NCBI RefSeq assembly: GCF_030384885.1
Contig: NZ_CP128613.1
DNA from: Escherichia coli
GTDB lineage: Bacteria > Pseudomonadota > Gammaproteobacteria > Enterobacterales > Enterobacteriaceae
DNA length: 64,000 nucleotides
Reading direction: 5' to 3' (one strand)
Part shown: one piece after another, positions 1,733 through 51,333 of the stretch
Position numbering within the stretch: position 1 is the first letter of the stretch
Layout of the letters: every line of letters begins with the position of its first letter
Made by a program: the position numbers and the translations under genes
Notes under the pieces: model-generated
Seen by the model: only the letters and a program-made list of their open reading frames with translations
Database searches by the model: none
What the model was told of the DNA's origin: nothing

Positions 1733-1734
1733 CG

Positions 1735-1800
1735 AGATCCGCTGTCGGATGCGATGCTGACGCATCTTATCCGACCTACGTTCACGCCGCATCCGGCAAC
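1735..1800. repeat. REP/BIME-type palindromic element in wzc-wcaA intergenic region
   Basis: gtcggatgcgatgctgacgcatcttatccgacctac plus second partial palindrome gccgcatccggc; matches REP consensus GCCGGATGCGGCG...CTTATCCGGCCTAC. Confidence 0.7.
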
Positions 1801-1860
1801 AGAACCTGTAAACCAGCTTATAAACCGGCAGAACATCTCGATACTCCGGGAGAACAACCT

Positions 1861-2700
1861 ATGAAAGACAATCCGCTGATCTCAATCTATATGCCGACCT
1901 GGAACCGCCAACAACTGGCGATTCGGGCGATAAAATCGGTCCTGCGCCAGGACTACAGCAACTGGGAGATGATCATCGTGGATGATTGCTCCACCTCCTG
2001 GGAACAACTGCAACAGTACGTCACCGCCCTCAACGACTCGCGTATTACGTACATTCACAACGACATTAACAGCGGGGCGTGTGCGGTACGTAACCAGGCG
2101 ATTATGCTGGCACAAGGGGAATACATCACCGGGATCGATGACGATGATGAATGGACACCCAACCGCCTGAGCGTCTTCCTCGCCCATAAACAGCAACTGG
2201 TCACACATGCGTTCTTGTACGCCAACGACTACGTTTGCCAGGGGGAAGTCTATTCCCAACCGGCAAGCTTGCCGCTGTATCCCAAATCGCCGTATTCACG
2301 CCGCCTGTTCTACAAACGCAATATCATTGGTAATCAGGTATTTAGCTGGGCGTGGCGTTTCAAAGAGTGCTTGTTCGATACCGAACTGAAAGCGGCACAG
2401 GATTACGACATCTTCCTGCGAATGGTGGTGGAGTACGGCGAACCGTGGAAAGTGGAAGAGGCGACGCAGATCCTGCATATCAATCACGGCGAAATGCAGA
2501 TCACCTCGTCACCGAAAAAATTCTCCGGGTACTTCCACTTTTATCGTAAGCACAAAGACAAATTCGACCGCGCCAGCAAAAAATATCAGTTGTTTACCCT
2601 CTACCAGATCCGCAATAAACGCATGACATGGCGCACTTTGTTGACGTTGCTGTCGGTGCGTAACGGCAAACGTCTGGCTGATGGAATTCGGGGGCGCTAA
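1861..2700 (+). CDS. wcaA: Colanic acid glycosyltransferase WcaA (GT2), 279 aa
   Basis: ORF length and position in cps operon; N-terminal SIYMPTWN and DDxS-type GT2 features. Confidence 0.85.
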   Translation: MKDNPLISIYMPTWNRQQLAIRAIKSVLRQDYSNWEMIIVDDCSTSWEQLQQYVTALNDSRITYIHNDINSGACAVRNQAIMLAQGEYITGIDDDDEWTPNRLSVFLAHKQQLVTHAFLYANDYVCQGEVYSQPASLPLYPKSPYSRRLFYKRNIIGNQVFSWAWRFKECLFDTELKAAQDYDIFLRMVVEYGEPWKVEEATQILHINHGEMQITSSPKKFSGYFHFYRKHKDKFDRASKKYQLFTLYQIRNKRMTWRTLLTLLSVRNGKRLADGIRGR

Positions 2701-2702
2701 AG

Positions 2703-3191
2703 ATGCTGGAAGATCTGCGCGCCAACAGCTGGAGTTTACGCCCGTGCTGCATGGTTCTTGCCTATCGCGTTGCTCATTTTTGTTCAGTGTGGCGCAAAAA
2801 AAACGTCCTCAACAATCTGTGGGCGGCCCCGCTGTTGGTGCTGTATCGCATTATCACCGAATGCTTTTTCGGTTATGAAATCCAGGCCGCCGCGACCATT
2901 GGCCGACGCTTTACTATCCATCACGGCTATGCCGTAGTGATCAATAAAAACGTGGTCGCGGGGGATGATTTCACCATTCGCCACGGCGTCACTATCGGCA
3001 ATCGTGGTGCCGATAACATGGCATGTCCACACATTGGCAACGGCGTCGAACTTGGTGCCAACGTCATTATCCTTGGCGATATCACGATTGGTAACAACGT
3101 CACCGTGGGGGCGGGCAGCGTGGTGCTCGACGCAATCCCGGACAACGCGCTGGTGGTGGGAGAAAAAGCGCGAGTGAAGGTAATTAAATGA
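2703..3191 (+). CDS. wcaB: Colanic acid acetyltransferase WcaB (hexapeptide-repeat), 162 aa
   Basis: Left-handed beta-helix hexapeptide repeats (IGNNVTVGAGSVV); operon position. Confidence 0.85.
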   Translation: MLEDLRANSWSLRPCCMVLAYRVAHFCSVWRKKNVLNNLWAAPLLVLYRIITECFFGYEIQAAATIGRRFTIHHGYAVVINKNVVAGDDFTIRHGVTIGNRGADNMACPHIGNGVELGANVIILGDITIGNNVTVGAGSVVLDAIPDNALVVGEKARVKVIK

Positions 3192-4405
3192 ATATTCTGC
3201 AATTTAATGTGCGACTGGCGGAAGGCGGGGCGGCAGGTGTGGCGTTAGATCTCCACCAGCGCGCGCTGCAACAGGGGCTGGCGTCACATTTTGTCTACGG
3301 CTACGGCAAAGGCGGCAAAGAGAGCGTCAGCCATCAGAACTATCCGCAGGTCATCAAACATACGCCGCGGATGACCGCGATGGCGAACATTGCCCTGTTT
3401 CGTCTGTTTAATCGCGATCTGTTCGGCAATTTCAATGAGTTATATCGCACCATTACTCGCACACCGGGACCGGTAGTCCTGCATTTTCATGTGCTGCACA
3501 GCTACTGGTTGAATCTTAAGAGCGTGGTGCGCTTTTGCGAAAAGGTGAAAAACCACAAACCGGATATCACTTTGGTCTGGACGCTGCACGATCACTGGAG
3601 CGTTACCGGACGCTGCGCCTTTACCGACGGATGCGAAGGCTGGAAAACGGGCTGTCAAAAATGCCCGACCTTAAATAACTATCCGCCGGTGAAGATTGAT
3701 CGCGCGCATCAGCTGGTGGCGGGCAAACGGCAGTTATTTCGCGAGATGCTGGCGCTGGGCTGTCAGTTTATTTCCCCCAGCCAGCATGTAGCTGATGCTT
3801 TCAATAGCCTGTACGGTCCAGGGCGTTGTCGGATTATCAATAACGGTATTGATATGGCAACCGAAGCGATTCTGGCGGACCTGCCTCCGGTGCGTGAAAC
3901 CCAGGGCAAGCCGAAAATCGCGGTGGTGGCGCATGACCTGCGTTACGACGGCAAAACTAACCAGCAACTGGTGCGCGAGATGATGGAGCTGGGTGACAAA
4001 ATAGAACTGCATACCTTTGGTAAGTTCTCGCCGTTCACCGCTGGTAACGTGGTTAATCACGGCTTTGAAACTGACAAGCGCAAGTTGATGAGCGCGCTTA
4101 ATCAGATGGATGCGCTGGTGTTCAGTTCTCGCGTCGATAACTACCCGCTGATTTTGTGTGAGGCGTTATCAATTGGTGTGCCGGTGATTGCCACCCATAG
4201 CGATGCGGCGCGGGAAGTGCTGCAAAAATCCGGCGGTAAAACCGTCAGCGAAGAAGAGGTGCTGCAACTGGTGCAGTTAAGCAAACCGGAAATCGCGCAG
4301 GCGATATTTGGTACCACGCTGGCTGAGTTCAGCCAGCGCAGCCGCGCCGCCTACAGTGGACAACAGATGCTGGAGGAGTATGTCAACTTCTATCAGAATC
4401 TGTAG
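3188..4405 (+). CDS. wcaC: Colanic acid glycosyltransferase WcaC, 405 aa
   Basis: ORF size and synteny; overlaps wcaB stop (translational coupling). Confidence 0.85.
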   Translation: MNILQFNVRLAEGGAAGVALDLHQRALQQGLASHFVYGYGKGGKESVSHQNYPQVIKHTPRMTAMANIALFRLFNRDLFGNFNELYRTITRTPGPVVLHFHVLHSYWLNLKSVVRFCEKVKNHKPDITLVWTLHDHWSVTGRCAFTDGCEGWKTGCQKCPTLNNYPPVKIDRAHQLVAGKRQLFREMLALGCQFISPSQHVADAFNSLYGPGRCRIINNGIDMATEAILADLPPVRETQGKPKIAVVAHDLRYDGKTNQQLVREMMELGDKIELHTFGKFSPFTAGNVVNHGFETDKRKLMSALNQMDALVFSSRVDNYPLILCEALSIGVPVIATHSDAAREVLQKSGGKTVSEEEVLQLVQLSKPEIAQAIFGTTLAEFSQRSRAAYSGQQMLEEYVNFYQNL

Positions 4406-5726: not shown

Positions 5727-6473
5727 ATGTTGCTTAGCATAATCACCGTTGCGTTTCGTAACCTCGAAGGGATAGTCAAAACACACGCCTCGCTGGCGCA
5801 TCTGGCGCAGGCTGACGATATCAGCTTCGAATGGATAGTTGTCGATGGCGGTTCCAATGACGGCACCCGTGAGTATCTGGAAAATCTCAATGGTATCTAT
5901 AACCTACGCTTTGTCAGTGAACCAGATAAGGGCATCTACGACGCCATGAACAAAGGCATTGCGATGGCACAAGGCAAGTTTGCGCTGTTTCTCAACTCGG
6001 GCGATATTTTTCATCAGGATGCCGCAAATTTTGTCCGTAAGTTAAAAATGCAAAAAGATAACGTGATGATCACCGGCGATGCGCTGCTGGATTTTGGCGA
6101 CGGGCATAAAATTAAACGTCGCGCTAAACCTGGCTGGTATATTTATCACAGCCTGCCCGCCAGCCATCAGGCGATATTTTTCCCGGTATCCGGCTTGAAA
6201 AAATGGCGTTATGATCTGGAATATAAAGTTTCTTCCGATTACGCGCTGGCGGCCAAAATGTATAAAGCAGGTTATGCATTTAAAAAACTCAATGGCCTGG
6301 TGTCTGAATTTTCTATGGGTGGGGTATCTACCACCAATAATATGGAATTGTGCGCGGACGCGAAAAAAGTCCAACGGCAAATATTACATGTGCCTGGCTT
6401 CTGGGCTGAATTATCCTGGCATTTACGCCAGCGCACGACGGGTAAGACTAAAGCCTTATATAACAAAGTCTGA
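5727..6473 (+). CDS. wcaE: Colanic acid glycosyltransferase WcaE (GT2), 248 aa
   Basis: ORF size and synteny; GT2-like N-terminus. Confidence 0.85.
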
Positions 6474-22130: not shown

Positions 22131-23135
22131 ATGAAAGTAATTGTAAATAATTTTTTTGATGGTATTTTGAAAAGAGGAATACCGATCTATACTTCTGAAC
22201 TTGTGCAAAAGTTAAGAGACAATAATGTTCAGGTTATTTATGTTGCATGTCCAAAAGCATTCCATAAGCTGCCTTCATGGTTTCTGAATGTTCTTTTTAT
22301 AATAGTAGAGCAGCTTTTAATACCAATTATGGGTATATTTTATAGAACTAAGTATAATATATATCCCTATAATAGTAGTTCCATCATTGACTTGTTATTA
22401 GGTAAGGCAATTGTTATAATTCATGACTTCATTAGTCTTAAGAAAAATAAACGAAACCTTGCTGCCATTTATGTGAAAGTCTGTATTTATTTTTCATCTT
22501 TTTTAGCAAAGAAAGTAATATTTATTTCTCAAAGCACTCAGCGAGTATCTAAGAGAATATCGCTATTTAAGCGTATAGAATCTATCCTGCTCCCAAATCC
22601 ATTTTTCTCATTTGAGAAAATTGCTAATGTTACCGAAATAAAAGATCTTGGATATTTACTTCTAGTTTCAGGTTTAGGGGATAATAAGGATCTAGGCACA
22701 GCTCTGGACTATTATTTTTCAATCCCAAGGGAAGAAAGAATACCATTAAAAATATTAGGTTGTGGGAATGGTATTAGCAAGGTTAACGACTTAATTGATG
22801 GGCGGGATACAGATAAAGAAATTGAAATTATTGGTTTTGTTTCTTTAGAGGAAGTCGTCAAACTATATTGTAATTCTAAAATTGTTTGGGCTCATTCGCT
22901 TGCCGAGGGGTATGGCAGGACTTTAGCTGAAGCAAAACTCACATGCAAAAATGTTATATGCACACGGATCTCTGCTTTCCGCGAACAAAAGGATTCGAAT
23001 ATTTTCTTTTATACTTACTATTCTGAGTATTATGAAGTCTATTCATACTTGGTAGATAATTCACCCAGTGTCGAAAGGAAAGCTCTGCATGAACATATTT
23101 TATTTGAAAATGAATTGAGAAAGATTTATGAGTAA
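22131..23135 (+). CDS. O-antigen glycosyltransferase, GT4-like (likely mannosyltransferase), ~334 aa
   Basis: Low-GC ORF; C-terminal E-x7-E-type motif (AHSLAEGYGRTLAEAK); start set to MKVIVNN at 22131 with RBS aagag. Confidence 0.6.
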   Translation: MKVIVNNFFDGILKRGIPIYTSELVQKLRDNNVQVIYVACPKAFHKLPSWFLNVLFIIVEQLLIPIMGIFYRTKYNIYPYNSSSIIDLLLGKAIVIIHDFISLKKNKRNLAAIYVKVCIYFSSFLAKKVIFISQSTQRVSKRISLFKRIESILLPNPFFSFEKIANVTEIKDLGYLLLVSGLGDNKDLGTALDYYFSIPREERIPLKILGCGNGISKVNDLIDGRDTDKEIEIIGFVSLEEVVKLYCNSKIVWAHSLAEGYGRTLAEAKLTCKNVICTRISAFREQKDSNIFFYTYYSEYYEVYSYLVDNSPSVERKALHEHILFENELRKIYE

Positions 23136-24330
23136 TATTGATATAAATAAGAAACAGATATTAGTTTTGACTCCACGGTTCCCATTTCCTGTCATTGGTG
23201 GGGATCGATTACGTATCTATAAGATCTGTAAAGAACTGTCTAAGCATTATGATCTTACGTTGCTGAGTCTGTGTGATAAACGCGAAGAGCTCAACTATGA
23301 ATATGATCGTGAAGTTTTTAGTAGTGTTCACAGAGTATATCTTTCAAAGAAAAAATCTGTTTTAAATGTCATATTCTCTTTGTTTTCAAATACACCCCTA
23401 CAGATTGGGTATTATAAATCTAAAGAATTTGAAGATAAACTTAAGCAGTTATTACCTGAACATTCTGCAACTCTTTCACATTTGATAAGGGTTGGTGATT
23501 ATGTGAAAGAGAATAAAGATATAAATTTTTTAGAGATGACCGATGCCATTTCACTTAATTATAAACGAGTAAAGGAAAAAGCATCTTTATTGAGTTTAAA
23601 AACATTTGTATATTCTTTTGAACAAAAAAGACTCGAACGATATGAGCGAACTATAAATAACAAGTTCAGCTTGACTACTTTGGTATCACAGGTTGACTCC
23701 GATTATTTATATCCAGAGCGTCCGAATAATGTATTAGTTTGTGGAAATGGTGTTGATGCCGTTAGCTTACCTTTTTCAGAACGAAAAATAGCTAAAGATA
23801 AAAAGATAACCCTTGTATTTATAGGTAATTTATATTCTTTGCAAAATATGGATGGTGTGAGATGGTTCACCAAGGAAGTTTTACCATTTCTGAACAAGCA
23901 TGGTAATTTTGAATTTAAGGTCATCGGACGTATTACAGATAAAGATAAGAGTTGGTTAGAAAGCCAGCCTGGCGTTGTTGTCACAGGTGAAGTTGATAGC
24001 ATAACTTATGCAGCAGCTGATGGGCATATTGGTGTGTGTCCTATTAGATTAGGGGCAGGTATCCAAAATAAGGTACTTGAATATATGGCGTTGGGATTAC
24101 CTTGTATATCTTCTACTGTAGGCTTTGAAGGCTTGGGAGCAGAGGAGGGTAAGGAGATTTATGTTGCCAATACAAAAGAAGAATATTTACGTGTATTAAA
24201 TTATTTTATAACAAATCTGGATAAATATACCGAAACAGCATTAGTTGCGAAAAAGTTTATCGATGAGAATTTTTCATGGGAAGCTAAATTGAGCCCATAT
24301 ATCCAGAAAATTAAGGAGTCTGTTAAATAA
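23128..24330 (+). CDS. O-antigen glycosyltransferase, GT4 family, 400 aa
   Basis: GT4 signature region [43 protein letters not shown]; 8-nt overlap with upstream GT. Confidence 0.7.
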
Positions 24331-24331
24331 A

Positions 24332-25747
24332 ATGATTATCCCAATTATTATGGCCGGTGGTTCTGGGACTCGCTTATGGCCTCTTTCGCGTTCGTTATAC
24401 CCGAAACAATTTTTATCATTGACTAATGAAAATAGTTTGCTCCAGGAAACGTTGAAGCGACTTGATGGATTAAATTGTTTGCCTCCTGTCATTGTTAGCA
24501 ATAATGAGCATAGATTTATTGTTGCTGAACAATTGCGACAGTTCGGTGTGGATGACTTCCAGATTATTCTAGAACCTGTAGGTAGAAATACTGCGCCCGC
24601 CGTTGCGCTGGCTGCTCTAAAGGCTCTGGAACTCCATGGCGATCATCATATGCTGGTTCTTGCTGCTGACCATGCTATTCAGGATATTGAAGCCTTCCAT
24701 GCAGCTGTTTTAGCTGCAGAACAAGAGTCCGTTGACAATAAGTTAGTGACTTTTGGCATCGTCCCGACCAAACCTGAAACTGGGTATGGCTATATTAAAA
24801 AGGGCGAACAAGTTAAAAACTCCGTATTTAAAGTAAATTCTTTCGTCGAAAAACCTGATTTAGAAACGGCTAAAAATTATCTCGAACAAAAATGCTATTT
24901 GTGGAATAGTGGTATGTTCATGTTCAAGGCGAGCGTATATTTAGATGAATTGAAAAAATTTCGCCCTGATATTTTAGCAGCGTGTAAAGAGTCGCTTTCC
25001 AGTGCTAGTACTGATCTAGATTTTATCAGATTAAATTCTGATGTCTTTGCAGAATGTCCCGATGAGTCAATTGATTATGCGGTAATGGAAAAAACTCAGG
25101 ATTGTGTAGTTATTCCACTTGATGCTGACTGGAGTGACATCGGATCATGGACATCACTTTGGGAAATATCAGAGAAAGATGAACATGAAAACGTATCGCA
25201 TGGTGATGTAATTAACTATAACAGCAGGAACAACTACATTTACTCTGAAGGTTCACTGATCAGCACTGTTGGAGTTAATAACCTTATTATAGTTCAAACT
25301 AAAGATGCGCTCCTGGTAGCACAGCAAGACAACGTACAAGACATAAAGAAAATTGTCGAAATTCTTAAAAAACAAAAACGTAGCGAACATATATCCCATC
25401 GCGAAGTCTATCGTCCTTGGGGACGTTATGATTCTGTAGAACGTGGCGACCGTTATCAGGTAAAACGTATTACCGTTAAGCCTGGTGAATGTCTCTCAAC
25501 ACAAATGCATCATCATCGAGCTGAGCATTGGGTGGTTGTCGCTGGTACTGCAAAGGTGACTTGCGGCGAACGCACTTATTTCGTCACTGAAAATGAGTCA
25601 ACTTTCATACCAATTGGCACAGTTCATACCTTGGAAAATCCAGGAAAGATACCATTAGAAGTAATTGAGATTCAGTCGGGTGTATATCTAGGTGATGATG
25701 ATATTGTGCGCCTAAGTGATAAATATGGTCGTGTTGAGGATAAATAA
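24332..25747 (+). CDS. manC: Mannose-1-phosphate guanylyltransferase (O-antigen copy), 471 aa
   Basis: [16 protein letters not shown] motif and cupin C-terminus; paralog of cpsB in this window but low GC. Confidence 0.9.
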
Positions 25748-25751
25748 TTAT

Positions 25752-27173
25752 ATGAATATTACCAATGATGTAATTAAAAATAGCGGAATTGCATTTGGTA
25801 CAAGTGGTGCTCGTGGATTAGTGAAAGATTTTACACCCAACGTGTGTGCTGCATTCACTTATGCTTTTATCGATGTAATGATGAAGGATTTTTCTTTTAA
25901 AGAGGTTGCGCTCGCAATAGATAATCGCCCAAGCAGCTATGCTATGGCACAAGCTTGCGCAGCAGCATTGTTGGAATGTAGTATTAAACCTATTTACTAC
26001 GGTGTAATTCCAACTCCAGCTTTGGCAAATCAAGCGATTGCCGATGGGATTCCTGCAATAATGGTTACTGGAAGTCATATTCCATTTGATAGAAATGGTT
26101 TGAAATTCTATCGTCCAGACGGGGAAATTTCAAAAGAAAATGAGAACAGCATTATACATGCTGAAAAAGAATATCCTGATGTAACTGTATTGCCAGAATT
26201 ACAATGTTCAAAGCGTGCCGCTGATACTTATATCGAGAGAAACACTTCAATTTTTTCAAATATATTTAAAGGTAAACGTATCGGGATTTATGAACATTCA
26301 AGTGCGGGACGGGATCTTTATCCAGAAATATTCAGTAAGCTTGGTGCTGAAGTTGTAAGTATTGGTAGAAGTGATGAGTTTGTGCCTATTGATACTGAAG
26401 CAGTATCAAAAGAAGATGAAGAAAAAGCTTTACACTGGTCATCTGAGTATGACCTCGATATGATTTTTTCTACCGATGGTGATGGCGATCGTCCTTTGGT
26501 TGCTGACGAAAATGGCGTTTGGTTACGGGGTGATATATTAGGACTATTTTGCTCAAAGGCAATGAATATTGAAGCGGTAGCTGTACCTGTAAGTTGTAAT
26601 ACGGTTATTCAGACCTGCGGGTGGTTTAATCATGTAACGCTGACTAAAATTGGTTCACCATACGTCATTTCAGCGTTTGATTCTCTGAATAATAGTTTTG
26701 ATAGTGTTGCAGGGTTTGAGGCTAACGGTGGGTATCTTTTAGGTAGCGATGTAAATTATAACAGCGGTATGATTAAAGCGCTTCCAACAAGAGATGCTGT
26801 TTTGCCTGCTTTAATGGTACTGGCACTGGCTATAAAAAATAATGTGACTATTTCAAAACTTTTGGCGGAGTTGCCACCACGATTTACCTATTCAAATAGA
26901 GTTCAAAATTTTGCAACAAGCAAAAGCAAAAGCATTATCGCGTCAGCTCAAGAAAATCCTCAAGAATTTATCGAAAGAATAGGCTTTGTCGACCTTCATG
27001 TACAATCGGTGGATACAATTGACGGGTTAAGATTGACACTAAGTGATGGTTCAATAATCCATTTGCGACCGTCAGGCAACGCACCTGAATTGCGATGCTA
27101 TGCAGAAGCAGATAACATAATAAAAGCTGAGAAATTAGTGTTAGAAATTTTGCATAAAGTTACTCTTTTGTAA
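25752..27173 (+). CDS. manB: Phosphomannomutase-like alpha-D-phosphohexomutase (O-antigen copy), ~473 aa, divergent from cpsG
   Basis: Phosphohexomutase loops present but atypical: TGSHIP (phosphoserine loop), DGDGDR (metal), GFEANGG (sugar), RPSGNAPE (phosphate); start set to MNITNDV at 25752. Confidence 0.75.
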
Positions 27174-27356
27174 AAAAATATAAACTTTTTTCTACTCTTG
27201 AGCGGTTTGTCATTGAACCGCTCAGTAATAGATTATTTTTAACTTGTTTATATTTAGCATTGGTGTTTTTATTTGCGTTCATCCCGAATAAGAGATTGTA
27301 AAATTAACTGTTTCTTGTTTTTCAAATGAGTTACTTCACTAGCAAAGCTAATTACT

Positions 27357-28688
27357 ATGCATAAGCAATATTATTCATTATTGTGCAATAAAATACAGTT
27401 TAAACATCTGGCTATATATTTTTCTGTATTTCTTTCACTATCCTCATGTTTCTTGTGGGGAGGGGCGGATACATTTGTATCGCAAGTGTATATTGATATT
27501 TTAGCCACTATATCTACAGCTCTATTAGTTATTTTGATGTTCTATTATTATATTAATAGAGTTCGCTATTTATCACTAACCTTACTTTTTGCATTCGTTT
27601 TTTCTTTGATTATTGGTTTGCCATCGATTTATCTTTACTATTTTAAAAACGCAAATCATGGGTTTGAAATAATTTGTATCTGGGGGATGTTGATCAATTC
27701 CATCCTTTACTTGCAAACAACAGAGACTGTCATAAAAGAAGAAAAAAGATATTTAACTAGTTTATTTTATATTTTGTTTTCTATTGTTGCACTGTGTCAA
27801 TTATGCAAAATATTAATTTATCTTATGTTTATATTGAATTCAGGAGAAGGGCATTTAGCAATTTATACTGAAAGCGAAGAATTGCTATCCCAAGTTCCAT
27901 TTTTTATTCGTGCTATTAGTGGTTTTGCAGTTGTAATGTCATTGTCCACTTTTTATTTTAAAACACCGACCTACATTAAAGTTATTGCATTTATTTTACT
28001 TGCATCTGATTTAGCTATTGGAATACGTAATAAGTTTTTCTTTTCAGTGATTTGTATTTTTATACTATATATGTACTCTAATGAGTATAGAGTAAGGAAT
28101 TTATTTAAGCAGCTCTCAAAACCAATATTTCTCATCGCGGGTTTTTTATGCTTCTCGATGGTATCGTATTTCCGTGAAGGGTACCAAATCGATTTTATGA
28201 ATTATATTGGCATTGTTTTAGATTCGCTATCCTCTACTCTTGGGGGGATGCAGAATTTGTTTGATATGCAATCATCAGGATGGGATCAACTTCATCCCGC
28301 TGTGGTATTCACACAAGTATTACCGCTAAGCGGTCTTGGTTTTCTTGATGATCAACAAATCGCAAAAGATTTTTCAATAATTGTTTTAGGTGATGTATCC
28401 TCTGGTATTGCGTTGTCATCTTCAGGATTGTTAGAGTCATCGTTGCTGAGTCTAAATTTGGGAGTGATTATTTATTTACTGTATTTATCAGGGGTGATGC
28501 TATTTATTAAATGGGGACTAAATAATCAACGGATAATAATAAACTTTGTTGCCATCTCCATGATATCTGGATTTTTTTATGCTGTTCGTGGTGAACTGAT
28601 TTTGCCATTGGCTTTTCTTCTAAAATCATTGCCGATTGTTCTTATATCTCCATTACTTGTTAAAAATAAAATTTATCATGGTCAGTAA
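27357..28688 (+). CDS. wzy: Putative O-antigen polymerase Wzy (polytopic membrane protein), 443 aa
   Basis: Very hydrophobic, low-GC, poor RBS, lies next to wzx in the O-antigen cluster; assignment by elimination. Confidence 0.55.
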   Translation: MHKQYYSLLCNKIQFKHLAIYFSVFLSLSSCFLWGGADTFVSQVYIDILATISTALLVILMFYYYINRVRYLSLTLLFAFVFSLIIGLPSIYLYYFKNANHGFEIICIWGMLINSILYLQTTETVIKEEKRYLTSLFYILFSIVALCQLCKILIYLMFILNSGEGHLAIYTESEELLSQVPFFIRAISGFAVVMSLSTFYFKTPTYIKVIAFILLASDLAIGIRNKFFFSVICIFILYMYSNEYRVRNLFKQLSKPIFLIAGFLCFSMVSYFREGYQIDFMNYIGIVLDSLSSTLGGMQNLFDMQSSGWDQLHPAVVFTQVLPLSGLGFLDDQQIAKDFSIIVLGDVSSGIALSSSGLLESSLLSLNLGVIIYLLYLSGVMLFIKWGLNNQRIIINFVAISMISGFFYAVRGELILPLAFLLKSLPIVLISPLLVKNKIYHGQ

Positions 28689-28729
28689 GTGGTTTATTTT
28701 TCGACCAGGATCTCACCAGTAGGCATGAC

Positions 28730-29965
28730 ATGATCAAAGAAATTTTCTCCGATGGCATTTTTTCGCTATTTAATAAAATATGTTACTTCGGTTTTAAAAC
28801 ACTTGCAATAATTCTGATTACTCGTTCCTTAGGAGAAGATGTAGGCGGAGAGTTCATTTTTTTAGTTGGTTTTCTCGAAGTCCTTCGGGTGGTTACTGAT
28901 TTTGGTGTGGATCTGTTTGTTATAAAAAAATATAATGATTCTACAGATAAAATAAAACTATTAAATGTAACGTTTGCACAAAAAATTCTTTCTGGAGTAA
29001 TTGTTTCACTACTGTTTTGTTTGTATTCTTTTGTTCATGGTTATCAATATAATGTCTATATTCCTATTGTGTTAGCCTTACCTGTTGCTTTATTTTTTAA
29101 TTTCTCAAATAGCTATTTTCAATCTCTCAATTCCAATAAATCCCTCACGTTTCCGATCGCAATTGCATCTATTGCAACGTGTACGATCTTCGCTATTCAG
29201 TATTTTTTAAACGTTAAATTTAACGCATGGGATTACCTGTGTGTTGAACTATTATTCGTATCGCTGGTTACACTAAAACTATTCGTTAGTGTCAAGTTTA
29301 GGTTTATTAGAACGTCAGCTTTTGATGTGCTAATGTCAATTCTTTCTTTATATAAATATACATTAAGTATAGGTCTTACAGCTGTTGTTGTAATTATTTA
29401 TAGCCGTGTAGATAATTTTTATCTCAAGACATTTGCCCCAGGGGATCTTGCAGCATATGGCCAGATATTTAGGATGGTTGATCCACTGGTTATGGTTTCT
29501 TCTGTATTTTCTACAGTTGCCTATGCAAGATTTTGCCGAATTAACTTACAAGAAAAAAATGCTTTTACTAAGGTGTTTCAGTTCCTGTTATGTATTGTGG
29601 CATATGGCGTGCTGAGTTCATTAGTTTATTTCTTTATAATAAAATACCTGGGTCATTTTGTGTTGATTTCTAATGTTAATAATGATTTCTTGATAATGAT
29701 GTTCTTGATTGTTGCATGTGTGAAATGTATCAATGGTGGTACAACTGCAATAATTCAGTCACAGGGGTTTTATAAAGTGGGTTTGTATGTTTCGTATGTT
29801 TGCATTTTGACATCGATACCAACTATGTATTTCTTAATAATGAAGTACGGTGTTAAAGGTGCTGCTATGACGATTCTGCTTGTAGAGTGTATTAGTTTCA
29901 TATTACTTCTCTGCAGCTTTTTTATGATAAAAAAGATGCGTCCTAAAAAAACATTCGAAATGTAA
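28730..29965 (+). CDS. wzx: Putative O-antigen flippase Wzx, 411 aa
   Basis: N-terminal region LAIILITRSLGEDVGGEFIFLVG...DFGVDLFVIKK parallels the wzxC N-terminus (LARIIDNHQFGLLTV...DFGIANSIIQRK); about 12 hydrophobic segments. Confidence 0.65.
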   Translation: MIKEIFSDGIFSLFNKICYFGFKTLAIILITRSLGEDVGGEFIFLVGFLEVLRVVTDFGVDLFVIKKYNDSTDKIKLLNVTFAQKILSGVIVSLLFCLYSFVHGYQYNVYIPIVLALPVALFFNFSNSYFQSLNSNKSLTFPIAIASIATCTIFAIQYFLNVKFNAWDYLCVELLFVSLVTLKLFVSVKFRFIRTSAFDVLMSILSLYKYTLSIGLTAVVVIIYSRVDNFYLKTFAPGDLAAYGQIFRMVDPLVMVSSVFSTVAYARFCRINLQEKNAFTKVFQFLLCIVAYGVLSSLVYFFIIKYLGHFVLISNVNNDFLIMMFLIVACVKCINGGTTAIIQSQGFYKVGLYVSYVCILTSIPTMYFLIMKYGVKGAAMTILLVECISFILLLCSFFMIKKMRPKKTFEM

Positions 29966-40293: not shown

Positions 40294-41193
40294 TCACTCC
40301 ATCATCTTCTCAATCGGCAGGACCAGAATCGAACTGGCACCCAGCGCTTTCAGTTTTTCCATCGTTTCCCAGAACAGGGTTTCGCTACTGACCATGTGCA
40401 TCGCTACGCGCTGTTGATCACCCGCCAGCGGTAGAATGGTTGGGCGTTCGGCACCTGGCAGCAGAGCGATGACTTCATCCAGTCGGTCGGTTGGTGCGTG
40501 CATCATGATGTATTTTGATTCGCGCGCCTGGATCACGCCCTGAATACGCGTCAGCAGTTTGTCGATCAGTTGCTGTTTGGATTCTTCCATTTCGCCATCG
40601 CGTTGGATCAGGCAGGCTTTCGAGCGGTAGATAACTTCGACTTCGCGCAGGCCGTTAGCTTCCAGCGTGGCACCGGTGGAAACCAGATCGCAAATCGCAT
40701 CCGCCAGGCCGGCGCGCGGCGCAACTTCGACAGAACCGTTCAGTAAGCAGGATTTAAAAGAGATGCCTTTCTGATCGAGATAACGCTTGAGCAGGTGAGG
40801 ATAAGAGGTGGCGATACGTTTACCGTTTAAGGAGAGCGGGCCGTCCCAGGCTTCATCAACCGGCGTTGCCAGCGAAAGGCGGCAGCCTCCGAAATCCAGA
40901 CGACGCAGGGTAAAGTAGCGCGGATCTTCACCCTGGGCGCGGCGGTTAAGCAGCTCTTCTTCCAGCACGTTTTCGCCGATAATCCCAAGGTCAACCACGC
41001 CGTCCATTACCAGACCGGGAATGTCGTCGTCACGTACGCGCAGAATATCAATCGGCATGTTTTCTGCCATCGCGATCAGGCGCTGGGTGTGAAGATTAAT
41101 TTTAATGCCGCAGCGCGCCAGTAATTCGCGTGAGTCATCACTTAAACGGCCGGATTTCTGCATAGCTATGCGTAAACGAGTGTTGTCTGTCAT
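40294..41193 (-). CDS. hisG: ATP phosphoribosyltransferase, 299 aa
   Basis: Start set to [17 protein letters not shown]; ORF upstream extension crosses the attenuator and is rejected. Confidence 0.95.
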
Positions 41194-41239: not shown

Positions 41240-41276
41240 ATAAAAAAGCCCCCGGAAGGTGATCTTCCGGGGGCTT
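41240..41276 (-). terminator. his attenuator (rho-independent terminator between hisL and hisG)
   Basis: On - strand: gcccccggaagatcaccttccgggggc followed by ttttttatt. Confidence 0.9.
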
Positions 41277-41338
41277 TCTCATGCGTTCATGCACCACTGG
41301 AAGATCTGAATGTCTTCCAGCACACATCGCCTGAAAGA

Positions 41339-41389
41339 CTAGTCAGGATGATGGTGATGATGGTGGTGTTTAAATTGAACGCGTGTCAT
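41339..41389 (-). CDS. hisL: his operon leader peptide MTRVQFKHHHHHHHPD
   Basis: 16-codon ORF with seven consecutive His codons, read directly from the reverse complement of 41339-41389. Confidence 0.95.
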   Translation of the reverse strand: MTRVQFKHHHHHHHPD

Positions 41390-41610
41390 AAAAGTCTCTG
41401 TGAATGTTTATTCAACTGATGTCTTTTAACCTAAACCACTTTCACGTTAGAAAGCAAGGGCTTTTTTATATATTTTATGGCGATGGATTTGTTTAATGAA
41501 TGAGCGGGGAAAGGAGAGGGCCAGGAGTGGCTACGTTAAAAAAGTAATCGTGAAAATATGTCTTTAAAACCCTCAAGAACATTGTGTTCTGTAACTAAAG
41601 TGGGCTTGGT

Positions 41611-41715
41611 TCCTGCCGGATGCGGCGTGAATGCCTTATCTGGTCTACAAATGTTGCCTAAATTCAATATATTGATGTTTTTGTAGGACTGATAAGCGGA
41701 GCGCATCAGGCAATT
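41611..41715. repeat. BIME: two REP palindromes in the hisL-yeeZ intergenic region
   Basis: gcctgccggatgcggcgtgaatgccttatctggtctac and inverted copy gtaggactgataagcggagcgcatcaggc. Confidence 0.75.
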
Positions 41716-41815
41716 GTATATTTGCTAACAGTTTCGATTTCATTCATAGAATGAATTGTCAGTTTTGATACGCTAGCGTAGCCTTATAGATCTAAGGTGT
41801 ATCAGGAGATAACGG

Positions 41816-42640
41816 ATGAAAAAGGTCGCAATTGTCGGGTTAGGGTGGTTAGGCATGCCGCTGGCGATGTCACTTTCAGCGCGAGGCTGGCAAGTCACCG
41901 GGAGTAAAACCACACAAGATGGCGTCGAAGCGGCCCGAATGAGTGGCATTGATAGTTATCTGCTTCGTATGGAACCTGAGTTAGTTTGCGATTCTGACGA
42001 TCTGGATGCCCTGATGGATGCTGATGCGCTGGTCATCACGCTTCCGGCACGTCGTAGCGGCCCCGGCGATGAGTTCTATTTACAAGCGGTACAAGAGTTA
42101 GTGGATAGTGCGCTGGCTCATCATATTCCCCGCATTATTTTTACCAGCTCAACGTCTGTCTATGGCGACGCACAAGGCACCGTTAAAGAAACCACCCCGC
42201 GTAATCCGGTGACCAACAGTGGACGAGTATTAAAAGAACTTGAAGACTGGCTGCACAATTTACCCGGTACTTCAGTCGATATTCTGCGTCTTGCGGGCCT
42301 GGTCGGGCCGGAACGTCATCCTGGTCGCTTTTTTGCCGGAAAAACCGCACCTGATGGTGAACATGGTGTCAATTTAGTCCATTTAGAAGATGTTATTGGC
42401 GCTATCACCCTGTTGTTACAGGCACCTAAAGGCGGACACATCTATAATATATGTGCGCCAGCTCACCCTGCGCGTAATGTTTTCTATCCGCAAATGGCCC
42501 GTTTACTGGGGCTTGAACCTCCGCAGTTCAGAAATAGTCTGGACAGCGGCAAAGGTAAGATTATTGATGGCAGCCGGATTTGTAATGAACTGGGATTTGA
42601 ATACCAGTATCCCGATCCGCTGGTAATGCCGCTGGAGTAA
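41816..42640 (+). CDS. yeeZ: NAD(P)-binding epimerase/dehydratase-family protein YeeZ, 274 aa
   Basis: N-terminal VAIVGLGWLG Rossmann-like motif; size and synteny. Confidence 0.85.
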   Translation: MKKVAIVGLGWLGMPLAMSLSARGWQVTGSKTTQDGVEAARMSGIDSYLLRMEPELVCDSDDLDALMDADALVITLPARRSGPGDEFYLQAVQELVDSALAHHIPRIIFTSSTSVYGDAQGTVKETTPRNPVTNSGRVLKELEDWLHNLPGTSVDILRLAGLVGPERHPGRFFAGKTAPDGEHGVNLVHLEDVIGAITLLLQAPKGGHIYNICAPAHPARNVFYPQMARLLGLEPPQFRNSLDSGKGKIIDGSRICNELGFEYQYPDPLVMPLE

Positions 42641-43881: not shown

Positions 43882-45240
43882 ATGTCGCATAACGTTACTC
43901 CAAACACCTCTCGCGTGGAATTGCGTAAAACGCTTACGTTAGTTCCGGTTGTAATGATGGGTCTTGCCTATATGCAGCCGATGACGCTGTTTGATACATT
44001 TGGTATCGTTTCAGGCCTCACGGATGGTCATGTGCCGACAGCCTATGCGTTCGCATTGATTGCGATCCTGTTTACGGCTCTGAGCTACGGGAAGCTGGTT
44101 CGCCGCTATCCTTCTGCTGGCTCTGCATACACTTACGCCCAGAAATCCATTAGCCCGACCGTCGGCTTTATGGTGGGTTGGTCTTCTCTGCTCGACTATC
44201 TGTTCGCGCCGATGATCAACATTCTGCTGGCGAAAATCTATTTTGAAGCTCTGGTGCCTTCCATTCCATCGTGGATGTTTGTGGTGGCGCTGGTGGCCTT
44301 TATGACCGCCTTTAACCTGCGTAGTCTGAAATCCGTAGCGAACTTCAACACCGTCATCGTGGTGTTGCAGGTAGTGCTGATCGCGGTAATTCTGGGCATG
44401 GTAGTTTACGGCGTATTTGAAGGTGAAGGCGCTGGTACGCTGGCGAGCACTCGTCCGTTCTGGTCTGGTGATGCACATGTCATTCCGATGATCACTGGTG
44501 CGACGATTCTGTGCTTCTCCTTTACCGGCTTTGACGGCATCAGCAACTTGTCGGAAGAAACCAAAGATGCAGAGCGCGTGATCCCGCGTGCAATTTTCCT
44601 GACCGCGCTTATCGGTGGCATGATCTTCATCTTTGCAACTTACTTCCTGCAACTGTACTTCCCGGATATCTCTCGCTTTAAAGATCCGGATGCGTCACAG
44701 CCTGAAATCATGCTGTATGTTGCGGGTAAAGCGTTCCAGGTCGGCGCGCTGATCTTCTCCACCATTACCGTACTGGCGTCCGGTATGGCGGCGCACGCAG
44801 GCGTAGCGCGTCTGATGTACGTAATGGGTCGTGACGGCGTGTTCCCGAAAAGCTTCTTCGGTTATGTGCACCCGAAATGGCGTACTCCGGCAATGAACAT
44901 CATCCTGGTTGGCGCGATTGCCCTGCTGGCAATCAACTTTGACCTGGTAATGGCTACGGCGCTGATTAACTTTGGTGCGCTGGTGGCGTTCACCTTCGTT
45001 AACCTGTCGGTTATCTCGCAGTTCTGGATCCGTGAGAAGCGTAACAAGACGTTGAAAGATCACTTCCAGTATCTGTTCCTGCCGATGTGTGGTGCGCTGA
45101 CCGTTGGTGCGCTGTGGGTTAACCTGGAAGAAAGCTCAATGGTTCTGGGTTTGATCTGGGCGGCAATCGGTCTGATTTACTTGGCTTGTGTCACCAAGAG
45201 CTTCCGTAACCCGGTTCCGCAGTACGAAGACGTTGCATAA
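43882..45240 (+). CDS. plaP: Putrescine importer PlaP (APC family), 452 aa
   Basis: 12-TM amino acid/polyamine permease; start [11 protein letters not shown] with RBS aaggag 7 nt upstream. Confidence 0.9.
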
Positions 45241-45278
45241 TCTTACAAGCCGGATGACATAATCATCCGGTAAATCTC

Positions 45279-45310
45279 AAAAAGCCGGAGTTTGTCGCTC
45301 CGGCTTTTTT
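45279..45310. terminator. Bidirectional rho-independent terminator between convergent plaP and sbcB
   Basis: aaaaagccggagtttgtcgctccggctttttt (perfect 7-bp stem flanked by A5 and T6). Confidence 0.85.
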
Positions 45311-45313
45311 GTT

Positions 45314-46741
45314 TCAGACGATCTCTTCCGCGTACTGCCAAAGCGCTTTTAACAGCGCCACTTTCTCTTTGTCATCGGCATATTGTTGTGCCAGCATCTG
45401 CAATTCATCAGCATAGCCCTGCAAAAACTCTGGCGTGAAAACCTGGCGGCGGTGCTCCAGCCAGCGTTGCTGCTCGGCATAATCCAGCGTCCCCGGGAAG
45501 TTGCGCGCCCGATAATTGAACAACAGCTTTTCAATCCGTTTATCAACAAAAGTGATATCCAGTGCCGGTAAATTACGCGGCTCGGTTTCCAGCACAATTT
45601 TCATTGCTGCACGATCGGCGTCACTGAAAAAGCCATTATAAAGCTGTGCATCCACGTTATCTGAAGGCGTAAACGGTTCGGCTTCGGCGAATATCGCCAC
45701 CACTTTTTCACGCACTTGCGGATTTTCACGCAGAATTTTCAGGTTATCGAGGCAATGCTGACGATTAATTCCCAGTCGGTCGGCATCTTCCGGGCGTAGC
45801 GTATTCGCCTGGGCCAGCACCGGACATTTATTGATATGCACCAGTTTAACCGGAACGGCGGCGTTATCGCCAAGATCGGCTTTTGCGGTATATAAACGCT
45901 CGCGCAATGTGTCGCTATCCAGCTCCAGTAATGGCGAAATGTCTCCTGCCAAATCCACCATAATTACGGCATTGCGATTTTCAGGATGCCACGCCAGCGG
46001 TGCCACCCAGCTGGTATTGCCACGCCATGCCCCAAACATTCCGGAAACGTGAACCAGGGGTTTCATCTGCGGAACATCAATCAACGCCATCAGTTTGTGT
46101 TTATTACGATGGGTAAAGAGATAATCAAACAGGCGTGGCTGACGCGTTTTTACCAGTTTCGCCATCGCAATAGTGGCGTACACATCAGCCATCGCATCGT
46201 GGGCGTTGCTATGTTCAATACCATTCGCTTTGGTTAAATGCTCAAGGCGAAAGCTCGGTAGACCGTCATCATTTTCAGGCCAGTTTATTCCTTCCGGGCG
46301 CAGGGCATAACAGGCACGCATAACATCCAGTAAATCCCAGCGCGAGTTATCATGCTGCCAGCTCCAGGCGTAAGGATCGTAGAAATTACGATAAAAAACG
46401 TTGCGTGTGACTTCGTCGTCGAAACGCACATTGTTGTAGCCCAGAATACAGGTCTTCGGTACGGTAAAAAGCGAGTGAATACGGGCGGCAAACGCGGCTT
46501 CGTTTTCTCCTTTCGCCCGTGCCTCCTGCGGGGTAATACCGGTAATTAATACTGCTTCAGGCTGGGGTAAATAGTCATCCGCGGGCTTGCAGTAAAAGAC
46601 TTCGGGTTCGCCGATGACATTGAATTCGTTATCAGTGCGAATGGCTGCGAACTGTGCAGGGCGATCTAACGCGGGGTGCGTTCCAAAGGTTTCGTAATCG
46701 TGAAACAAAAAGGTAGATTGTTGCTTACCGTCATTCATCAT
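45314..46741 (-). CDS. sbcB: Exodeoxyribonuclease I, 475 aa
   Basis: DnaQ-like exonuclease N-terminus FLFHDYETFGTHPALDRPAQFAAIRTD; start set to MMNDGKQQ. Confidence 0.95.
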   Translation of the reverse strand: MMNDGKQQSTFLFHDYETFGTHPALDRPAQFAAIRTDNEFNVIGEPEVFYCKPADDYLPQPEAVLITGITPQEARAKGENEAAFAARIHSLFTVPKTCILGYNNVRFDDEVTRNVFYRNFYDPYAWSWQHDNSRWDLLDVMRACYALRPEGINWPENDDGLPSFRLEHLTKANGIEHSNAHDAMADVYATIAMAKLVKTRQPRLFDYLFTHRNKHKLMALIDVPQMKPLVHVSGMFGAWRGNTSWVAPLAWHPENRNAVIMVDLAGDISPLLELDSDTLRERLYTAKADLGDNAAVPVKLVHINKCPVLAQANTLRPEDADRLGINRQHCLDNLKILRENPQVREKVVAIFAEAEPFTPSDNVDAQLYNGFFSDADRAAMKIVLETEPRNLPALDITFVDKRIEKLLFNYRARNFPGTLDYAEQQRWLEHRRQVFTPEFLQGYADELQMLAQQYADDKEKVALLKALWQYAEEIV

Positions 46742-50465: not shown

Positions 50466-50479
50466 TTCCTGTTTTATTC

Positions 50480-50506
50480 AATGAGGGTTGCCCGGTAACC
50501 CTCATT
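50480..50506 (+). terminator. Hairpin terminator after yeeX
   Basis: aatgagggttgcccggtaaccctcatt (10-bp perfect stem) followed by T-rich tract. Confidence 0.65.
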
Positions 50507-50565
50507 GCTCATTGTTTCTTTTCTGTGTATCACCGTCATCACTCCCATCTGATAACCTATTGAAA

Positions 50566-50841
50566 TTAGCGACAGCCTTCTTCTGTATGCAGCAAGGCAA
50601 AAAGTTCTGTAACTCCATTGTTATTAACCGCACTGGTTACTAACACGTTGTGCGCTCCAGCTTCCCGTAACCAACATTTCACCAAAGATATTTGTTCCAT
50701 ACTGGCTAAATCTGCTTTGGTTACTACTCCAATGACCGGGCGATTCATTGACGAGGTAAAGCCTGGCGAAAAAGGTGACCACGGTGCGTCCGCATTAAGT
50801 ACCAGCGCGATAATGTCTGCTTCGCAGGCACTGACCAACAA
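50566..50841 (-). pseudogene. yoeF: C-terminal fragment of an EutP/PduV-family GTPase (yoeF-like remnant)
   Basis: 91-aa ORF resembling the C-terminal half of EutP/PduV (…[12 protein letters not shown]…); no P-loop N-terminus present. Confidence 0.5.
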
Positions 50842-51200
50842 TGCACTGTAAAGGCGGCGATTTTATTGGTGAGGACTGGCAGCAAGATTTCCAGCCTCTT
50901 AACGGTGGGCCTGTGCAATCGTTATCAGATGCGTATAGCGATTATTCAGTGCTGCTATTGATAGCAGCTGAAAGCGAGATATCCGTTCCAGAATGGTTCC
51001 CTCATTCTGAGGGAACGACGGTAATTTTGATTGCAGAACACAATGCCCGTTTGCTGAATGGTCCGGCTGGTGGGGCTGTAGCATTAATCCATTATTTGAA
51101 TGAAATCTGTCATGCCAGAGAAACCGCTGTCAATGACGCATTTTGTCGGACGTTAACACGAGGAAGTCTGGCTATTCCGCAATGCCATCTTCTTTCGTAA
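50841..51200 (+). pseudogene. Possible 3' remnant of cbiP (cobyric acid synthase) immediately upstream of cobU
   Basis: 119-aa ORF co-directional with and directly upstream of cobU, where cbiP sits in Salmonella; identity not verified. Confidence 0.25.
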
Positions 51201-51333
51201 TGGATTGAGAATGCTGGATTTTTAATTATATTACGCGCAGTATTAATCGCGTAAATGTTTTGCGGTCAGCAACGGTGGGGGATCCATTGTTCTGTTCAAT
51301 GAATACCATCATACAATTGAATCAGGAGTCGGT

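Follow-up and report, generated by a model that had tools for sequence, protein, structure and literature searches.

In Escherichia coli K-12, the yefM-yoeB toxin-antitoxin (TA) pair occupies the spacer between yeeZ and hisL, and the locus described here raises the question of what is found at this site in a strain without the pair, and whether the module has been lost from the site or has never been there. The DNA that was analysed is a continuous stretch of 64 kb (hereafter the window). A preliminary description of it had placed the TA pair of K-12 between yeeZ and hisL, had reported its absence from this interval of the window and had noticed a BIME in its place. The map position agrees exactly with the record of K-12 MG1655, in which the gene order is yeeZ, yoeB, yefM, hisL and the yeeZ-hisL spacer, including the yefM-yoeB module (b2017/b4539), is 867 bp long. 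TA modules have been described as horizontally transferred units consisting of a promoter/operator and two ORFs, which lack a terminator and are located between core genes (Ramisetty et al., PMC5120126). Moreover, reviews regard the TA modules of K-12 as accessory, and none of them is conserved across the strains MG1655, W, EDL933 and UTI89 (PMC7167474). The absence of the TA genes together with the presence of REP sequences in the yeeZ-hisL spacer is already known, as both were published in 2011 for E. coli O157:H7 Sakai, which was reported to be devoid of yoeB and yefM between yeeZ and hisL (Iguchi et al. 2011, PLoS One, PMC3158064). The Sakai spacer has the same arrangement as that of the window, whereas the O antigen of the window strain belongs to the O17/O44/O73/O77/O106 family. 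What the present analysis adds to the published one-line description are counts of the two spacer types in 5426 genomes (22% and 78%), precisely mapped junctions, the limits of the cassette as delineated by plasmid copies and the polarity suggested by outgroups.

The absence of the TA pair from the interval between hisL and yeeZ (positions 41390-41815) was confirmed in all reading frames. A tblastn search with the antitoxin YefM (YefM/Phd family) and the toxin YoeB (YoeB/Txe family) of K-12 against all 64 kb of the window yielded nothing better than an E value of about 1, the matches being scattered fragments of 15-57 amino acids. When the 867-bp spacer of K-12 was compared with the window by blastn, matches were obtained at its two ends only: positions 1-77 of the K-12 spacer correspond to 41815-41739 of the window with 100% identity, and positions 730-867 correspond to 41527-41390 with 97% identity. 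The alignment thereby mapped the junctions exactly. The central 652 bp of the K-12 spacer, which comprise yoeB, yefM, the promoter/operator and a further stretch, lie opposite 211 unrelated base pairs in the window (41528-41738). Thus, the window has the same neighbouring genes and flanks as the K-12 locus, and the 652 bp of K-12 are represented by an unrelated segment that carries the BIME. The same breakpoints, 41527 and 41739, recur in the comparison of the window with E. coli 042. Relative to K-12, one segment stands in for another between fixed junctions, which is a replacement and not a clean deletion. A decayed remnant of yefM-yoeB was not detected in the 211 bp, neither by tblastn with E values of up to 100 nor by blastn with a word size of 7. 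In K-12, the region upstream of yefM contains an autoregulated promoter and operator with TGTACA palindromes. When the K-12 sequence that includes this region (spacer positions 78-729) was compared by blastn, it produced only chance hits of 12-23 nt elsewhere in the window. The locus in the window is therefore not a YefM-YoeB module by any of these comparisons. The preliminary description had also given the interval as about 425 bp without an ORF. The length is 426 bp, and mechanical ORFs of up to 56 amino acids are present and overlap the repeat. None of the ORFs in the interval has a significant match in Pfam, the single sub-threshold hit (E 0.12) being attributable to chance, and RefSeq annotates no gene at this place in a near-identical genome or in the sampled genomes with the 211-bp segment.

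The interval is a divergent spacer, as can be deduced from the sequence and the ORF list. The his operon is encoded on the minus strand of the window, with hisG at 40294-41193, and yeeZ followed by yeeY is encoded on the plus strand. The his operon leader RNA with the attenuator (41240-41363, minus strand) is a full-length match to the Rfam family RF00514 (His_leader); its score of 131.6 bits (gathering score 49, E value 2.6e-23) assigns it to the His operon leader family. It overlaps the gene of the leader peptide and is situated adjacent to, and just outside, the interval 41390-41815. RefSeq annotates a "His leader region" also in the near-identical E. coli strain 2013C-4282. The hisL gene (41339-41389, minus strand, start codon at 41387-41389) is annotated in 2013C-4282 and in K-12, and its translation confirmed the histidine-rich leader peptide MTRVQFKHHHHHHHPD. 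Upstream of hisL, the his promoter region and the start of the 5' untranslated region (41390-41468, minus strand) are highly conserved in alignments reaching from Escherichia to Salmonella, Citrobacter, Enterobacter and Klebsiella. We take the hexamers TAGGTT (41433-41428) and TTGCTT (41457-41452) to be the putative -10 and -35 elements of the his promoter, respectively. A promoter scan did not report the his promoter because TTGCTT fits the -35 consensus at only three of six positions.

The promoter region is followed by a spacer of about 59 bp (41469-41527) that is specific for Escherichia. It is shared by the spacers with and without the TA module, forms part of the 97% match to K-12 and is missing from the aligned outgroups outside Escherichia. 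The next 211 bp (41528-41738), whose boundaries were set by blastn against both K-12 and E. coli 042, have a GC content of 39%. The remaining 77 bp upstream of yeeZ (41739-41815, plus strand), which are common to both types of spacer and partly conserved in other genera, harbour the palindrome ATTCAT-AGA-ATGAAT (41742-41756) and the ribosome-binding site AGGAG (41804-41808). Furthermore, the promoter scan revealed a promoter-like site, CTAACA-16 nt-TAGAAT (41725-41752), which spans the junction between the 211-bp segment and the shared DNA. The yeeZ gene (41816-42640, plus strand, ATG at 41816), which bears this name also in the annotations of K-12 and 2013C-4282, encodes an SDR-family oxidoreductase or epimerase of 274 amino acids. 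The nucleotide sequences of yeeZ and hisG are 96.4% and 96.7% identical to those of K-12, respectively.

What, then, are the 211 bp made of? As stated in the preliminary description, the site holds a BIME (41611-41715) with two inverted REP sequences, which were located at 41615-41648 and 41683-41711. REP 1 is of the Y type, with its CTAC head at 41645-41648; it matches a Y consensus at 31 of 34 positions, that is, with three mismatches, and agrees with the Y sequence printed in the literature (PMC2817692). REP 2 has the opposite orientation, with its GTAG head at 41683-41686, and matches a short-loop Z consensus with two mismatches. As REP 2 does not contain the seven extra loop bases of the REP that is named Z2 in PMC2817692, it would by elimination be a candidate Z1 sequence. 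Neither consensus was ever matched in shuffled sequences. The two REPs are also supported by two inverted-repeat pairs, both REP stems carry mismatches to the consensus, and the GTAG heads face inward across a linker of 34 nt (41649-41682). No further REP consensus match with up to three mismatches exists in the 64 kb, and the REP pair is a single copy rather than a tandem array. Within the linker, a regex scan identified the sequence CATCAATATATTG (41665-41677, minus strand), which fits 12 of the 13 positions of the IHF consensus WATCAANNNNTTR. It is the only relaxed IHF match in the interval, 13 such matches being present on both strands of the whole 64 kb, and its consensus positions are kept in four other Escherichia alleles without the TA module. 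BIME-1 elements have been defined as single-copy combinations of y and z1 sequences with a long L linker, which often contains an IHF site (PMC3333891). Judged by these definitions, the repeat of the window has BIME-1 architecture at the level of its sequence, including an L linker with a predicted IHF site.

Similar elements are known from other loci. The 34-nt linker can be aligned with that of the REP-linker-REP element between yaaX and yaaA of K-12 through the sequence AATTCAATATATTG; this K-12 element is presumably RIP, and the K-12 record that was used has no annotated repeat features. Furthermore, other genomes have a copy of the BIME with 81-82% identity in the intergenic region of the convergent genes cmoB and torZ. 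The BIME-1 (RIP/RIB) elements at yaaX-yaaA and cmoB-torZ share with the window the inward-facing REP heads, the long linker carrying AATTCAATATATTG with an IHF-like core and the single copy number. The locations differ: the cmoB-torZ copy is flanked by convergent genes, whereas in the window the BIME separates the 5' ends of the divergent genes hisL and yeeZ and is situated upstream of both promoters, which is unusual for this class of elements. Classical RIP/RIB elements are found at the 3' ends of transcription units, according to the title of the work by Boccard and Prentki from 1993, and this 3'-end location, which is typical of the family but not a strict requirement, does not apply to the window. 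When folded as RNA, the BIME was no more stable than shuffled sequences (z = -0.93). A match to the Rfam family naRNA4 (E 0.74) was dismissed as weak, because it reflects only the similarity of REP sequences.

To look beyond the window, use was made of the genome of E. coli 2013C-4282 (NZ_CP027579.1), which shows only 3 mismatches to the window in 40.7 kb. This strain was isolated from human stool, and its O-antigen cluster belongs to the O17/O44/O73/O77/O106 family. A chimeric query consisting of 800 bp of the wzy gene of the window strain and the 652-bp TA segment of K-12 was searched in a sensitive blastn mode. In the chromosome of 2013C-4282, the query matched a single place, which corresponds to the wzy part, and no DNA similar to yefM-yoeB was detected down to about 65-70% identity. 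The absence of yefM-yoeB from the whole genome is thus a statement on DNA similarity in the chromosome of 2013C-4282. The same chimeric query matched no plasmid in the whole collection.

A survey of 5426 complete E. coli genomes revealed that the hisL-yeeZ spacer commonly occurs as one of two alleles, of which the window carries the TA-free one. The 211-bp segment is present with at least 80% coverage in 1196 genomes (22%), with a median of one place per genome and without an annotated feature under the matches listed. The 652-bp TA segment of K-12 is present in 4212 genomes (78%), always on the chromosome, and the two allele classes together account for 99.7% of the genomes. When the whole spacer of the window served as the query, it was contiguous in 1193 genomes and split in about 4230; the two parts of a split match lie about 1152 bp from each other and enclose yoeB and yefM. 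Within E. coli, copies of the TA allele itself differ by up to about 4.6%. Genomes of O157:H7 carry the 211-bp segment with 96.7% identity to the copy of the window and a length change of 1 bp. Among the matches listed, 60 genomes possess the wzy gene of the window; the TA segment is absent from 39 of them and present in 21. Moreover, E. coli 042 has a wzy gene of the same family (98.9%), yet it carries the TA module at this site. Therefore, the allele is not tied to the O type. The flanks of the window and of 042 are 96.4-96.9% identical over 7.3 kb, the divergence being roughly even. A recent replacement of a local patch was considered and rejected, as this level of identity is maintained throughout and shows no sign of a recent local event. 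Two genomes with unusual spacers were inspected as well. The spacer of HH97, a candidate for a third allele, is an interleaved mix of both alleles without an ORF and probably represents an assembly artefact rather than a decaying TA module. The strain MEI4BO-21, another candidate for a third allele, does not have a decaying module either but carries a Kluyvera georgiana-like import with a short spacer of the ancestral type.

The direction of the change was addressed with 80 yeeZ loci from species-representative genomes, in which the content between yeeZ and hisG was measured; this set did not extend to the chromosomal loci of E. fergusonii, E. marmotae and E. ruysiae. All 74 informative loci from other genera (Salmonella, Citrobacter, Enterobacter, Klebsiella, Raoultella, Kluyvera, Kosakonia and others) have yeeZ-hisG gaps of 349-634 bp, mostly 355-382 bp, and are devoid of both the TA genes and the 211 bp. 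In the alignment with the outgroups, about 260 bp (roughly 41469-41728) stand out as an insertion specific to Escherichia, the first 59 bp of which occur in both alleles. Within Escherichia, the 211-bp allele was found in E. albertii (89.1% identity to the window), in the "E. coli" strain E69 (99.5%) and in E1V33 (95.3%) and MOD1-EC7003 (93.4%), the representatives of two further Escherichia species. E. albertii is usually placed as an early-branching member of the genus. E. whittamii has the TA allele, which is 96.6% identical to that of K-12 at the nucleotide level, its flanks being 93-95% identical. Towards yeeZ, the 211-bp segment ends in CAGTTTCGAT, which is similar to CATTTCG found there in the outgroups; this is weak evidence, as the similarity extends over only about 7 bp.

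Further information comes from plasmids. Copies of yefM-yoeB with 74-86% nucleotide identity to K-12 are present on the Salmonella IncFII plasmid NZ_CP030176.1, on pEM148 of E. marmotae and on plasmids of Citrobacter, Enterobacter and Pantoea. Their similarity to K-12 begins about 5 bp past the yoeB stop codon and ends about 65-85 bp upstream of yefM, and their flanks are unrelated to the his-yeeZ spacer. The plasmid cassettes thus indicate the extent of the mobile unit that the window lacks: it would comprise the promoter and the two genes, which may have taken the place of the 211 bp. The similarity stops short of the 59-bp spacer that both alleles share. Therefore, the 59 bp appear to be chromosomal, and they are contiguous with the 211 bp in the species that lack the TA module. 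About 65 bp on the TA side fall outside the cassette as defined by the plasmids, which weakens the case for a single clean integration event. The TA-free allele is probably the older state in Escherichia, and the window haplotype would never have held the module, because the outgroups are devoid of it, E. albertii and three further Escherichia genomes carry the 211 bp and the plasmid copies delimit a cassette. The preliminary description had left undecided whether the module was never acquired or lost, and the comparisons with outgroups and plasmids favour the former. The TA allele of E. whittamii suggests that this allele, too, is old or has crossed species boundaries, and the polarity therefore rests mainly on E. 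albertii and the plasmids.

Taking all comparisons together, we consider it quite likely that the window contains the TA-free allele of a two-allele polymorphism, that this allele is the older of the two and that the cassette was integrated later. Read from hisL towards yeeZ, the TA-free allele is composed of the his promoter region, the shared spacer of about 59 bp, the 211 bp with the BIME as their core and the 77 shared base pairs. The 652 bp of the other allele represent a promoter-yefM-yoeB cassette of about 590 bp, akin to the plasmid copies, together with about 65 bp of further DNA. The cassette may have been integrated by illegitimate recombination, an event that would have removed the 211 bp, and both alleles may then have spread by homologous recombination in the recombination-prone neighbourhood of the his and O-antigen loci. 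On this reading, the module would never have been present in the window haplotype. Recombination also blurs the allele history of any single strain.

The opposite direction of change would require that yefM-yoeB is ancestral in Escherichia and that the 211-bp segment took its place later, by deletion of the module and the arrival of repeat-containing DNA, for instance through the activity of a REP-associated transposase or through illegitimate recombination. We judge such a loss at the level of the haplotype to be unlikely. It would be in line with the majority status of the TA allele (78%) and with its age, as suggested by the divergence of about 4.6% within E. coli and by its presence in E. 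whittamii. Moreover, BIMEs undergo processing by TnpA-REP and are known to generate polymorphism between genes (PMC3333891), and the exact junctions shared by the two alleles are symmetric as to the direction of the exchange. However, neither protein nor DNA comparisons disclosed a trace of yefM or yoeB in the 211 bp. Furthermore, the 211-bp allele of E. albertii has diverged to the degree expected between species (89%), the module is missing from all 74 loci of other genera and the cassette as defined by the plasmids leaves out the 59-bp spacer, which is contiguous with the 211 bp in the TA-free species. A mis-assembly or a collapsed repeat as the cause of the short spacer has a negligible probability. 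The artefact-like interleaving in HH97 indicates that assembly errors do occur at this site, but the 211-bp allele recurs in 1196 complete genomes that are independent of each other, and four other Escherichia representatives have it with graded divergence. As the same arrangement has also been reported from the finished sequence of O157:H7 Sakai (PMC3158064), this explanation is effectively refuted.

A loss could also have occurred at the level of the strain, if a TA-bearing ancestor of the window strain had imported a TA-free his-yeeZ haplotype by homologous recombination, possibly along with a switch of the O antigen. We give this course of events a modest chance of being correct. The exchange of the O-antigen region between lineages is documented (PMC3158064, PMC5359238), and the flanks of the spacer are unusually diverged, both from K-12 (96.7% for hisG and 96.4% for yeeZ) and from 042 (96.4-96.9% over 7.3 kb). 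The TA module of 042 despite its closely related wzy gene (98.9%) and the mixed condition of the 60 listed wzy sharers (21 with and 39 without the TA segment) point in the same direction. However, a recombination breakpoint was not found near the spacer; over the 7.3 kb compared, the window and 042 differ to a similar degree throughout. Vertical inheritance of a TA-free haplotype would fit these data equally well, and the identity of the sequence at the locus is the same in either case.

It has also to be considered whether the two alleles differ in function. Neutral filler is the default reading of the BIME. If the element is active at all, its effect is probably neutral or mildly structural, by way of predicted IHF binding and the potential to form hairpins. 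A far-reaching alternative, which we regard as very improbable, is that the alleles form a long-lived dimorphism that crosses species boundaries and is kept by selection instead of drift, the BIME-1 acting as an IHF-bound insulator or tuner of the his and yeeZ promoters and replacing the input from the yefM promoter. This idea derives from the occurrence of both alleles in more than one Escherichia species and from their divergence of several percent within E. coli.

The consequences for the window strain are straightforward. No YoeB mRNA interferase and no YefM repressor can be produced from the hisL-yeeZ locus. In K-12, yeeZ is listed among the genes that are likely to be co-transcribed with yefM-yoeB (PMC5120126), whereas such co-transcription is impossible in the window. 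We infer that yeeZ, being devoid of read-through from the yefM promoter, must use its own upstream signals, and the gene may be regulated differently in strains with one or the other allele. Moreover, phenotypes that depend on YoeB, such as Lon-triggered mRNA cleavage, heat stress and bladder colonisation, are inapplicable to about 22% of the strains, including O157:H7. The finding as such is ordinary and matters little by itself. In a wider sense, chromosomal type II TA modules are accessory cassettes in the spacers of the core genome, and the content of K-12 must not be equated with that of E. coli. The locus could serve as a worked example of TA integration by replacement. A comparable case has been mentioned for another site: Mine and co-workers reportedly described in 2009 the presence or absence of the ccdO157 TA module between folA and apaH in E. 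coli. The phenomenon is the same as in the window, with a TA module in an intergenic spacer of some strains and a short TA-free spacer in others, while the TA family and the locus are different.

The O-antigen gene cluster at 22131-29965 of the window belongs to the O17/O44/O73/O77/O106 family according to the wzy and wzx annotation of the near-identical strain 2013C-4282. Genomes that carry the wzy gene of the window divide into those with the TA-free and those with the TA-bearing hisL-yeeZ allele. The locus of 'E. coli strain E69' (CP089930.1) shares the 211-bp TA-free segment with the window at 99.5% identity, and the flanking genes yeeZ and hisG are only 93.0% and 95.4% identical, respectively. 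The hisG-spacer-yeeZ pattern of E69 is thus mosaic, consistent with recombination breakpoints near the spacer.

Two further public genomes carry atypical spacers. In the E. coli strain HH97 (NZ_CP116409.1), which has been deposited as a 'complete' genome, the hisL-yeeZ spacer comprises 649 bp (2276-2924 of the extracted locus L087) and reads as though the 211-bp allele and the TA allele had been interleaved into a single consensus. No intact ORF was found in this spacer. Rather than a decaying TA module, the HH97 spacer is most likely an assembly artefact derived from a mixed sample. In the E. coli soil isolate MEI4BO-21 (NZ_CM149565.1), the hisG-yeeZ-plaP stretch (1568-4100 of locus L088) lacks yeeY and is 93-99% identical to Kluyvera georgiana, and its hisL-yeeZ spacer has the short form of 178 bp that is typical of other genera. 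This stretch looks like an inter-genus import adjoining the O-antigen region.

Downstream of the spacer, the window also differs from K-12 in gene content. The tmaR-cobU interval (50466-51333) contains nothing but a pseudogene of the EutP/PduV family and a gene for a hypothetical protein of 119 amino acids. Since the matching position in K-12 is occupied by the CP4-44 prophage with flu, cbtA and other genes, this prophage appears to be missing from the window. Likewise, the K-12 genes tsuA and tsuB (also designated yeeE and yeeD) are missing between plaP (43882-45240) and sbcB (45314-46741) in the window. The gap is only 73 bp long (45241-45313); within it, a GC-rich hairpin precedes a run of T residues. 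The same arrangement was observed in E. coli 042, and strains lacking yeeD and yeeE have been described previously (Iguchi et al. 2011; PMC3158064).

In K-12, the his-side junction of the TA allele, where the spacer sequence common to both alleles gives way to TA-specific DNA, is spanned by a hairpin whose 11-bp stem is perfectly paired (GCTAAGAGGAC-A-GTCCTCTTAGC; 5844-5866 of the K-12 locus L001). One of its arms is located mostly in the common sequence and the other in the TA-specific sequence. The hairpin, which is degenerate in the TA allele of E. whittamii, may be an integration footprint or else have arisen by chance. The perfect palindrome ATTCAT-AGA-ATGAAT (41742-41756), which precedes the start of yeeZ by 60-74 bp, is common to both alleles and partially conserved in other genera. 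Its T-N11-A form is that of a LysR-type regulator box, and yeeY, which follows as the next gene downstream, is a member of the LysR family; the palindrome may be a regulator site. Another perfect palindrome, AGAACA-TTG-TGTTCT (41575-41589), is located inside the 211-bp allele-specific segment upstream of the BIME, and its counterpart in E. albertii is imperfect.
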